Below are positions 266-15,762 of a stretch of 54,964 nt of DNA, piece after piece. Location of the stretch: contig CALHZJ010000114.1 in the NCBI GenBank assembly GCA_938041005.1, positions 1-54,964 on the forward strand, read 5' to 3'. The first letter of the stretch is position 1. Every line of letters begins with the position of its first letter. The notes below the pieces were generated by a model, which saw only the letters and a program-made list of their open reading frames with translations, searched no databases and was not told where the DNA came from. The DNA is from an uncultured Candidatus Saccharibacteria bacterium. GTDB lineage: Bacteria > Patescibacteriota > Saccharimonadia > Saccharimonadales > Saccharimonadaceae. The position numbers and the translations under genes are program-made.

Positions 266-292
266 TAAAAAATCGCCTACTCGGCGATAATC
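266..292 (-). terminator. Intrinsic terminator of the tRNA operon
   Basis: ATCGCC/GGCGAT hairpin followed by a T-run on the minus strand, just after tRNA-Val. Confidence 0.6.
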
Positions 293-307
293 CTGACTAT
301 CTATGAT

Positions 308-384
308 TGGTGGGCGCTGAGGGACTCGAACCCCCGACCCTCTCGGTGTAAACGAGATGCTCTAGCCAACTGAGCTAAGCGCCC
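308..384 (-). tRNA. tRNA-Val(TAC)
   Basis: Cloverleaf GGGCGCT...AGCGCCC-ACCA, anticodon loop TTTACAC, GTTCGA T-loop. Confidence 0.96.
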
Positions 385-396
385 ATATTAAAAATA

Positions 397-473
397 TGGT
401 GGGCGATGAGGGACTTGAACCTCCGACCTCGTCATTATCAGTGACGCGCTCTAACCAGCTGAGCTAATCGCCC
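397..473 (-). tRNA. tRNA-Ile(GAT)
   Basis: Cloverleaf, anticodon loop CTGATAA, encoded CCA. Confidence 0.96.
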
Positions 474-483
474 TCATTCGTCT

Positions 484-519
484 TGGTGGAGTGTCGTGGA
501 CGTAAGCCCACTTCACCCC
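484..519 (-). ncRNA. Candidate tRNA-Ala-like minihelix (36 nt, CCA end)
   Basis: GGGGTG-AA-GTGGGC-TTAC-GTCCAC-GA-CACTCC-ACCA: 6-bp acceptor-like stem with G3:U, 2x2 internal loop, 6-bp hairpin, discriminator A and CCA. Confidence 0.55.
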
Positions 520-522
520 ATA

Positions 523-599
523 TGGTGGAGACACAGGGACTCGAACCCTGGACCCCCTGCTTGCAAAGCAGGTGCTCTAGCCAACTGAGCTATGTCCCC
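523..599 (-). tRNA. tRNA-Ala(TGC)
   Basis: GGGGACA...TGTCTCC-ACCA with G3:U70, anticodon loop TTTGCAA. Confidence 0.96.
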
Positions 600-620: not shown

Positions 621-649
621 ATTGTACAGTATCTTTTTAATTCTGACAA
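621..649 (-). promoter_or_regulatory. Sigma70 promoter of the tRNA operon
   Basis: TTGTCA-17 nt-TACAAT on the minus strand, upstream of tRNA-Ala. Confidence 0.65.
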
Positions 650-15359: not shown

Positions 15360-15762
15360 TGGTGGAGCTGCCGGGTACTGCCCCCGGGTCCAACTGGTAT
15401 CACAGCATTCGTCTACGAGCATAGGCTTATCTAAATTTATTTAATAACGCTACTCGGATTTAAAATAAACCAAGAAAACCGAGTTCCGTTACGTAGTAAA
15501 AGTCCTATATATCCGCTACTTCCAAATATATAGCAAGCAACATAGATATAACACCCTTAGATATTGACTGTTGCCACAATACAAGGATGATCGCTAAAAA
15601 TTAGGCAGCGATTGGCGCAAAGGCCATCTTAGGAGCGAAAGCGCTCGCTACGAATGACTTTGCTTTTGCAACAAAGTTTGCATCTAAAAACATACGTTAC
15701 GCGTATCGTCGGCTCGCAGAATGTCATGATAAAGTCCAATTGTCGAAAGCTATATCAGCCCC
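15360..15762 (-). ncRNA. ssrA: tmRNA
   Basis: 5' GGGGCTGATATAGCTTTCGAC; 3' CAGCTCCACCA with G3:U; internal tag ORF ending in AA-stop (15601-15681). Confidence 0.93.

Follow-up and report, generated by a model that had tools for sequence, protein, structure and literature searches.

Minihelix-Ala has been a laboratory construct for over 30 years, and it has served as an argument for an older 'operational code' that resides in the acceptor half and is read by the synthetases. Synthetic minihelices and microhelices of tRNA-Ala were reportedly described by Francklyn and Schimmel in 1989. The tRNA-like domain of transfer-messenger RNA (tmRNA) is an alanine acceptor with G3:U70 and an ACCA end, which is charged by alanyl-tRNA synthetase (AlaRS) and has no anticodon. 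According to the available part of Villet et al. (2007, PMC2175331), UDP-MurNAc-hexapeptide is formed in a coupled AlaRS-FemX assay with tRNA-Ala minihelices of 35 and 36 nt, with a 24-nt microhelix and with a bare duplex, and the accessible portion of Fonvielle et al. (2009, PMC2655667) identifies G2-C71 as the main FemX determinant. In S. aureus, non-proteogenic tRNA-Gly is reserved for FmhB, and EF-Tu competes for the proteogenic ones, as stated in the sections at hand of Rietmeyer et al. (2020, PMC7826273). The window analysed here is a stretch of 54,964 nt from an uncultured Candidatus Saccharibacteria bacterium (contig CALHZJ010000114.1 of assembly GCA_938041005.1), and its minus strand carries a 36-nt hairpin between tRNA-Ala and tRNA-Ile. 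The element is described here as the gene for a small tRNA-like 'alanine minihelix' RNA that is co-transcribed with tRNA-Ala, tRNA-Ile and tRNA-Val, and this RNA may be a natural non-decoding alanine carrier. No natural bacterial minihelix is described in the literature searched, and Rfam 15 holds no family for the element.

Fold, covariation and acceptor identity of the 36-nt element

The minus strand at 519..484, which begins 3 nt past the CCA of tRNA-Ala, reads exactly as given in an earlier note on this DNA. The 36-mer adopts the fold ((((((..((((((....))))))..)))))).... at -20.5 kcal/mol, which makes up 0.99 of the ensemble and has a z score of -4.4, with none of 200 shuffles folding equally well; the hairpin is retained when the element is folded within its 221-nt operon context. 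The acceptor-like stem begins with G1:C, G2:C and G3:U and is followed by discriminator A73 and an unpaired, encoded CCA. At the level of sequence and fold, three features of AlaRS minihelix substrates (G3:U70, A73 and a single-stranded CCA) are present, and an AlaRS gene is found in the window's assembly. Additionally, the tip hairpin contains a G13:U20 wobble.

Related loci in the genus were chosen by the similarity of tRNA-Ala and tRNA-Ile, independently of the hairpin. The minihelix is present in 15 of the 17 assembled Ala-Ile-Val operons, and in the genus alone three pairs exhibit double changes with pairing at 100%. The compensatory changes include G11:C22 to A:U, U10:A23 to C:G and G9:C24 to C:G, and GAAA or UUCG can take the place of the tetraloop. 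Of five Ala-to-Ile spacers from outside the genus, two hold a divergent minihelix (in G047 and G046), in which G1, G2, G3:U, A73 and CCA are kept and the stem lengths and the loop differ. A pattern scan of one genome per species over all prokaryotes, with G1-G4, the GGC/GUC tip and CUCCACCA fixed, returned at least 120 stretches. Among the matches listed, 47 loci passed the fold filter. Seven of these (L064, L079, L080, L089, L119, L130 and L143) come from high-GC genomes, have no tRNA in their vicinity and were discarded as chance hits; the remaining 40 among the matches listed lie on contigs of the Saccharibacteria type, including four that are labelled otherwise ('bacterium', 'Bacteroidia' on a 2.3-kb contig, 'Chloroflexi' on a 3.7-kb contig and 'Nomurabacteria') and have the same tRNA context.

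Together, the pattern scan and the earlier loci yielded at least 37 distinct minihelix sequences. In the alignment of 35 members, 98.3% of 419 cells pair, and 62 cells are compensatory compared with 19.6 +/- 4.3 in shuffles, none of 500 of which reaches 62; in controls with a slid 3' partner, pairing falls to 37-51%. Five pairs vary among these members, all five with changes on both sides. Acceptor pairs 1-4 are invariant in the alignment, pair 5 is UA, CG or UG, pair 6 is GC, AU, UA or GU, and three pairs of the tip covary. The tip loops are UUAC, UUCG, GAAA, CUCG, UUAU, UUUU and GCAA. The helix is divided as 6+2+6, 6+8, 8+5, 8+3, 7+5 or 5+7 with a bulge or a loop, and the irregularity always follows pair 5-8 in a total stack of 13-14 layers.

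The wobble pair was addressed separately by a search with N at positions 3 and 70, which covered 401 genomes of the order. Matches are found in 13 of the 401, all 13 have G3:U70, and a reversed-pattern control gives no match in the same 401 genomes. Members that were obtained without the pattern (G046, G047, G142 and G037) keep G1-G2-G3:U and ACCA, and the rest of their helix is different. The G2-C71 pair is invariant in the minihelix members. The earlier note had held that its proposal would fail if the pairing, the G:U and the CCA were not conserved in relatives; covariation is observed instead, and G3:U70 and ACCA are kept across families. Very probably, the minihelix gene is real and under selection, and it encodes a small RNA with the acceptor identity of alanine.

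A functionless leftover, whether a partial duplication of tRNA-Ala, a tRNA-linked repeat or an intrinsic-terminator hairpin, is the least likely of the readings considered and is highly improbable. The covariation in five pairs already contradicts it, and the element, which covaries and is present in a single copy, has not copied pairs 5-6 from its neighbour. These are U5:A and G6:C in the minihelix, A5:U68 and C6:G67 in tRNA-Ala, and C5:G and U6:A in tmRNA. The earlier note had taken this three-way contrast, each part of which is confirmed, as an argument against a simple decayed duplication, and the argument is borne out by 28 of the 29 loci holding both genes, in which pairs 5-6 are unlike those of the neighbouring tRNA-Ala. 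The 8-nt end CTCCACCA that is common to tRNA-Ala and the position 3 nt behind that gene would fit a leftover, as would the rumen-type members, the only ones with a T run behind ACCA, in which the minihelix follows tRNA-Ile at the operon end. However, the element occurs in at least 10 Saccharibacteria families, also after tRNA-Ile or alone, and in the window ACCA, AGACGAATGA and two more tRNAs come after the stem, with no T run, the terminator being located at 288..272. GGGGUG/CACUCC is common to most members while the acceptor of the adjacent tRNA-Ala varies, and because of this independence the minihelix forms its own lineage and is not a product of gene conversion. Judged from its sequence, it is not a decayed duplicate. 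The sole locus with identical pairs 5-6 is in the unpublished genome G069, which is also one of the 11 carriers in the order sample described below and one of the 13 in the search at positions 3 and 70; the conclusions are the same without it.

As the earlier note had anticipated, tRNA finders overlook the element: neither ARAGORN nor Rfam 15 calls it, the latter in gathering or E-value mode and even at E <= 10. It is a 36-nt single hairpin without the D, anticodon and T arms and the anticodon of a tRNA cloverleaf, and without the T arm and tag reading frame of a tmRNA domain; the tmRNA model RF00023 matches only the tRNA-Ala part at 523-560 and nothing at 484-519. The 840-kb assembly contains 45 tRNA genes, all with an encoded CCA, and one tRNA-Ala gene was found among them. 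A loose scan of this assembly for NCCA-ended hairpins gives 406 matches, nearly all of which are within coding sequence. The minihelix is the sole acceptor-like hairpin in the flanks of the 45 tRNA genes, and the absence of any such hairpin at the other 44 speaks against a general acceptor-copying cassette.

Operon structure, transcripts and distribution

The minihelix of the window and of its genus lies inside an Ala-Ile-Val tRNA operon, the parts of which are given in Table 1. The promoter hexamers TTGTCA/TACAAT are likewise kept across the genus loci L001-L013. The 16S rRNA gene, the end of which is at 1200, has terminator-like sites of its own, and the tRNA unit, with its own promoter, therefore looks separately transcribed. 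Elsewhere in the window, a standard tmRNA is found by Rfam at 15360-15762 on the minus strand with 84.8 bits; ARAGORN reports none, whether in the whole window or in the excised region.

Table 1. Features of the tRNA operon that contains the minihelix, by position in the window
Feature	Position	Strand	Details
sigma-70-type promoter	621..649	(-)	TTGTCA, 17 nt, TACAAT; 10/12 matches; ~22 nt upstream of tRNA-Ala
tRNA-Ala(UGC)	523..599	(-)	acceptor GGGGACA/UGUCUCC; ARAGORN coordinates, also Rfam
spacer UAU, 3 nt	520..522	(-)	tRNA-Ala to minihelix; U is position -1 of the minihelix
alanine-type minihelix RNA gene, 36 nt, GGGGTGAAGTGGGCTTACGTCCACGACACTCCACCA	484..519	(-)	
acceptor-like stem, 5' strand (G1 G2 G3 G4 U5 G6)	514..519	(-)	
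acceptor-like stem, 3' strand (C27 A28 C29 U30 C31 C32)	488..493	(-)	U30 is the equivalent of U70
middle and tip	494..513	(-)	purine 2x2 internal loop A7 A8/G25 A26, 6-bp hairpin G9-C14/G19-C24, tetraloop UUAC
A73-C-C-A end, single-stranded, genome-encoded	484..487	(-)	
spacer AGACGAAUGA, 10 nt	474..483	(-)	minihelix to tRNA-Ile; DNA reading AGACGAATGA
tRNA-Ile(GAU)	397..473	(-)	ARAGORN, Rfam
tRNA-Val(UAC)	308..384	(-)	ARAGORN, Rfam
intrinsic-terminator-like hairpin and T run	272..288	(-)	operon end

RNA-Seq contigs from four runs were compared with the stretch. A 141-nt contig from a transcriptomic RNA-Seq run of one study joins tRNA-Ile, the spacer, the minihelix and tRNA-Ala; it contains two substitutions only, G11A:C22U, which constitute the compensatory G:C to A:U variant of G030 and G006. 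In a run from a second study, contigs lie on the minihelix at 480-520, 492-533 and 504-550. In RNA libraries, the minihelix is therefore found in one piece with its neighbouring tRNAs, and the contigs show its co-transcription with them. The operon flanks at 250-300 and 607-750 have no contig cover in X4, X7 and X12, and the contig depth on the minihelix is of the same order as on the tRNAs; neither observation is usable as evidence.

Carrier genomes contain a single minihelix copy. In an even sample of the order (151 genomes, 121 genera), the minihelix is present in 11 genomes from 9 families, and the main subtype is present in 13 of 401 order genomes. Within the genus, 16 of 41 genomes carry it, and most of the remaining 25 assemblies do not contain the operon itself. 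In the rest of the order, tRNA-Ala and tRNA-Ile are in most cases separated by an empty spacer of 3-46 nt, and no clear member was found outside the order in a sample of the phylum. The R1 covariance model, built on eight genus sequences, recovers 5 of the 151 order genomes and misses G046, G047, G142, G037, G053 and G180, and the R2 model still misses the three most divergent members; the prevalence figures are therefore lower bounds. The minihelix gene is rare, patchy and dispensable, yet conserved where it is present. G019, which has tRNA-Ala in an Ile-Ala pair on a 2.9-kb contig and no minihelix, was given no weight, as this arrangement is unlike that of its congeners.

Several further structures were observed near tRNA genes or with an ACCA end. 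In another class of the phylum, locus L262 (G251:C1:173346-173386, minus strand) is a stand-alone 41-nt hairpin with 12 continuous pairs, a 13-nt loop and ACCA, in which A3:U70 replaces the G:U and which is followed by a terminator hairpin of its own; it may be a different kind of CCA-ended minihelix. At L196 (G183:C39:6057-7126), the 192-nt spacer behind tRNA-Ala closes with a repeat of the last ~13 nt of that gene, including CCA, directly before tRNA-Ile, and this repeat looks like a tRNA-end scar and not a minihelix. Several other Saccharibacteria families have a copy of the initial ~19 nt of tRNA-Ile ~118 nt upstream of the real tRNA-Ile, and behind this partial copy lies a conserved element of two or three hairpins (L020:1566-1695 on the minus strand, L023:1379-1508, L027:302-431 on the minus strand, L168:1325-1454 on the minus strand and L170:1320-1449 on the minus strand).

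In addition to the operon settings, the minihelix is found before tRNA-Ala (G053), 173 nt from tRNA-Ala (G100) and with no tRNA nearby. These settings bear on the possibility that the minihelix is a tRNA-mimic processing signal, at which RNase P would cut a polycistronic transcript and leave an excised piece with no further job; the cut would produce a shorter tRNA-Ala trailer in the tRNA operons and would split the upstream mRNA from the murF mRNA in the murF context. The minihelix always lies in transcripts that need cutting, either after a tRNA or between genes, and its encoded ACCA and 13-14-layer stacked helix are as in RNase P model substrates. U, the usual nucleotide before an RNase P cut, occupies position -1 in 31 of the 37 distinct members, and two carriers have no Fem gene. 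However, RNase P has no need for G3:U70, yet the G:U is kept in 13 of 13 cases while the neighbouring pairs change freely. The 5' cut of tRNA-Ile 10 nt further on already separates the tRNAs, the short Ala-Ile spacers of most Saccharibacteria are hairpin-free, and the signal is absent from the other tRNAs of the genome. The co-occurrence and co-loss with FemAB, which are described in the next section, are also left unexplained, and a processing signal is considered rather unlikely.

Association with Fem-family proteins and the proposed alanine donor

Fem-family (FemX-like) proteins are aminoacyl-tRNA transferases, which draw amino acids from charged tRNA for the cell wall. The window's assembly encodes a FemAB-family protein of 308 aa (Pfam E 1.2e-23), and no match to the MprF C-domain (LPG_synthase_C) or to an L/F-transferase was found in it. 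In the order sample, all 11 minihelix carriers are FemAB-positive compared with 65 of 151 genomes overall, which corresponds to a one-sided Fisher p of 5.6e-5, uncorrected for kinship. Among the four genomes of family f2, just one has FemAB, and it is the one with the minihelix. FemAB is also present in 5 of 5 and in 18 of 20 carriers that the pattern scan supplied, a further 5 of 5 partly repeating the same assemblies, and in 15 of 16 carriers of the genus. The comparison family Ddl exhibits no such link (8 of 11 carriers vs 122 of 151 genomes overall); Cas1 was useless as a comparison family, with matches in 1 of 151 genomes.

Two congeners, G009 and G015 (99% complete), have a 14-nt spacer in the operon from which the minihelix is cleanly missing, and neither gives a FemAB match. 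At the syntenic femAB site of these genomes, TsaD is followed by ValRS after about 160-175 nt, and femAB lies between the two in the window's genome. The same TsaD-ValRS arrangement is found in two more members of the FemAB-less subclade. The minihelix and femAB are jointly lost in G009 and G015.

A third line of evidence is provided by gene order, with the minihelix placed directly ahead of a murF...femX-like cluster in five families. In G121 (f21) and in G187 and G400 (f50), the minihelix lies co-directionally and directly upstream of genes for a MurF-like ligase, an alpha/beta hydrolase, a DegT aminotransferase and FemAB, with the start of FemAB 3.2-3.3 kb downstream of the minihelix. The same cluster genes lie behind the minihelix in G180 (f60), where the contig stops before FemAB. 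In G053 (f18) the minihelix is located beside the cluster in divergent orientation, 4 nt before tRNA-Ala, and in G037 (f2) it is upstream of the hydrolase, MurF, Ddl and LeuRS. An assumed location of FemAB and the minihelix on one contig in G189-G191 proved to be wrong. Of the donor roles that the earlier note had offered, a Fem/MurM reaction is therefore the one favoured by FemAB co-occurrence, co-loss and the murF...femX-like synteny, and alanylation by MprF loses ground with the missing LPG_synthase_C match.

As separate observations on these genes, three families (L252:1195-5370, L253:174-4315 and L254:3-3118) have the conserved cassette of MurF-like ligase, alpha/beta hydrolase, DegT aminotransferase and FemAB ahead of LeuRS, and in G037 a Ddl gene occupies the DegT-FemAB place of the cassette. 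The Cas1 matches are in the window's own genome, G000 (C10:15895-16557 and C29:4215-4583, outside the window), with none in the other 150 sampled order genomes. G000 (93.8% complete) also lacks a match to the D-Ala-D-Ala ligase C-domain at E <= 1e-10, which is present in 122 of 151 order genomes, and its AlaRS reading frame is only 651 aa.

For both Fem proteins tested, the best-named relative is the NCBIfam FemX alanyltransferase model, with scores far below the cut-off. The G121 enzyme matches the solved FmhB, FemA and W. viridescens FemX. A phmmer search of the window genome's FemAB against PDB sequences gave no match, and a single-sequence AlphaFold model of this protein, with a mean pLDDT of 48.7, was not used for a fold search.

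The proteins and their neighbours also bear on the acceptor. A charged minihelix might donate its alanine to a non-murein acceptor, such as a surface-polysaccharide amino sugar or a small peptide, through the DegT/FemAB pair or another unrecognised aminoacyl-tRNA-dependent enzyme. This would be in keeping with the position of FemAB beside a DegT-type aminotransferase in five families, in one case beside a polysaccharide deacetylase as well, and with an 'aminoacyl-tRNA-dependent peptide synthase' among the PDB relatives of the G121 enzyme. However, murF and ddl are the immediate neighbours, the best-named relative of both Fem proteins is an alanyltransferase model, albeit below its cut-off, and the window's own femAB has no DegT neighbour; a non-murein acceptor is thus regarded as quite improbable.

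The link with FemAB similarly weighs on the possibility that the minihelix is a decoy or regulator, which would bind AlaRS or another protein that recognises the acceptor end of tRNA-Ala (be it an editing factor, a CCA-end enzyme or a toxin directed at tRNA ends) and would buffer or sense alanine charging without donating to any product. No partner gene that tracks the minihelix was found except FemAB, the minihelix is patchy whereas AlaRS is universal, and both the FemAB association and the murF synteny are left unexplained. The conserved AlaRS identity set, the single tRNA-Ala gene and the location in one transcription unit with tRNA-Ala are points in favour of such a role, which is nevertheless judged unlikely.

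Donation of alanine to a FemX-like enzyme is the preferred reading. RNase P would cut the transcript before G1, and exonucleases would trim the 10-nt trailer to the encoded CCA. The minihelix would then be charged with alanine by AlaRS through G3:U70 and A73, and the Ala-minihelix, with no anticodon arm and no T loop, would be kept out of translation. It would serve as the dedicated donor for a FemX-like transferase acting on a cell-envelope precursor, with the murein stem peptide as the most likely acceptor in view of the neighbouring MurF, and it would thereby relieve competition for the single tRNA-Ala of the genome. Because minihelix charging and FemX use have been shown in vitro, the proposed mechanism asks for no enzyme activity unseen in vitro. 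The full mechanism, in which the minihelix is a dedicated alanine donor for a FemX-like transferase, is given about an even chance. That the minihelix is a natural anticodon-less aminoacyl-carrier RNA, charged by AlaRS via G3:U70 and used by a FemX-like enzyme to place Ala on a cell-envelope precursor, is put at a little under even.

A number of observations weigh against this mechanism. The helix, with a 2x2 loop between two 6-bp stretches and a tetraloop at the tip, is not the canonical acceptor/T-arm stack with a 7-bp acceptor, a 5-bp T stem and a 7-nt T loop, and for most members the invariance of G1-G4, of the GGC/GUC tip and of CUCCACCA is imposed by the search pattern. The minihelix family is rare: it is present in 11 of 151 genomes, and its main subtype in 13 of 401. 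RNA contigs cannot reveal where a 36-nt species ends or how abundant it is. G203 and G211 (on a 736-kb contig) are carriers with no match to FemAB or Acetyltransf_6, the genus carrier G021 (90% complete) has no FemAB match, and FemAB is present without the minihelix in 54 of the 140 non-carriers of the order sample. Most genomes with FemAB lack the minihelix, and the Fem enzymes of the clade therefore do not need it. Because the genomes are related, their counts lack independence and the p-values make the association look stronger than it is; the co-loss in the genus is one event, and the murF synteny may date to one or two ancestral arrangements. The femAB gene of the window's genome is on another contig (C36, near murF and murE) and not near the minihelix. 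The carriers' Fem proteins range from 308 to 421 aa and are not clearly one orthologue, two that were compared sharing 24% identity. Additionally, the window genome's MurE scores best as the DAP type and not as the Lys type used by W. viridescens FemX.

Significance and comparison with known systems

A natural minihelix that is under selection and has the identity set for alanine would demonstrate that RNAs of this kind are in use in cells. If the proposal is true, the laboratory 'minihelix-Ala' would have its first counterpart encoded in a genome, and aminoacylation and peptide-bond chemistry on nothing but the acceptor half of a tRNA would have a living example. If it feeds a Fem enzyme, it would represent the most extreme known split of an aminoacyl-tRNA pool between translation and cell-wall synthesis, in ultrasmall epibionts with a single tRNA-Ala. 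It would also mean that a class of genes derived from tRNA escapes tRNA finders and Rfam. New here are the minihelix gene in its tRNA-operon form, its co-loss with femAB and the Fem-less exceptions, and the novelty in mechanism would be that the minihelix is encoded by the cell. Because cultured Nanosynbacter strains and natural non-carriers without both genes exist, the question is directly testable. No muropeptide analysis of TM7x was found in the literature searched.

Like the minihelix, tmRNA is an alanine acceptor with G3:U70 and ACCA and no anticodon; the T arm, SmpB binding and reading frame of tmRNA have no counterpart in the minihelix. The tRNA-Other of Bacillus cereus is, in the available part of its description (PMC3399842), likewise a non-translating tRNA-like RNA, the loss of which alters the cell wall and antibiotic resistance; in contrast to the minihelix, it is a pseudo-tRNA of nearly full length, located next to a genomic island, and, within that part of the source, has no alanine identity.

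The tRNA-Gly species of S. aureus resemble the minihelix in its proposed use. As presented in the accessible sections of two reports (PMC7826273 and PMC9976931), they are extra acceptor RNAs of one identity that are set apart from translation and preferred by Fem enzymes, a role that the minihelix would share. In the same sections they are full cloverleaves with anticodons that evade EF-Tu by changes in the T arm, whereas the minihelix has no D, anticodon or T region at all.

The synthetic tRNA-Ala minihelices are similar in form, with 36 nt, ~12 Watson-Crick or wobble pairs, G3:U70, A73 and CCA. They are charged by AlaRS and used by FemX in vitro, as reported in the part of PMC2175331 at hand. 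The synthetic molecules have 7+5 bp and a 7-nt T loop, whereas the natural one is genome-encoded and selected, and has two stretches of 6 bp on either side of a 2x2 purine loop, which is replaced by a bulge in other members, and a tetraloop as its closure.

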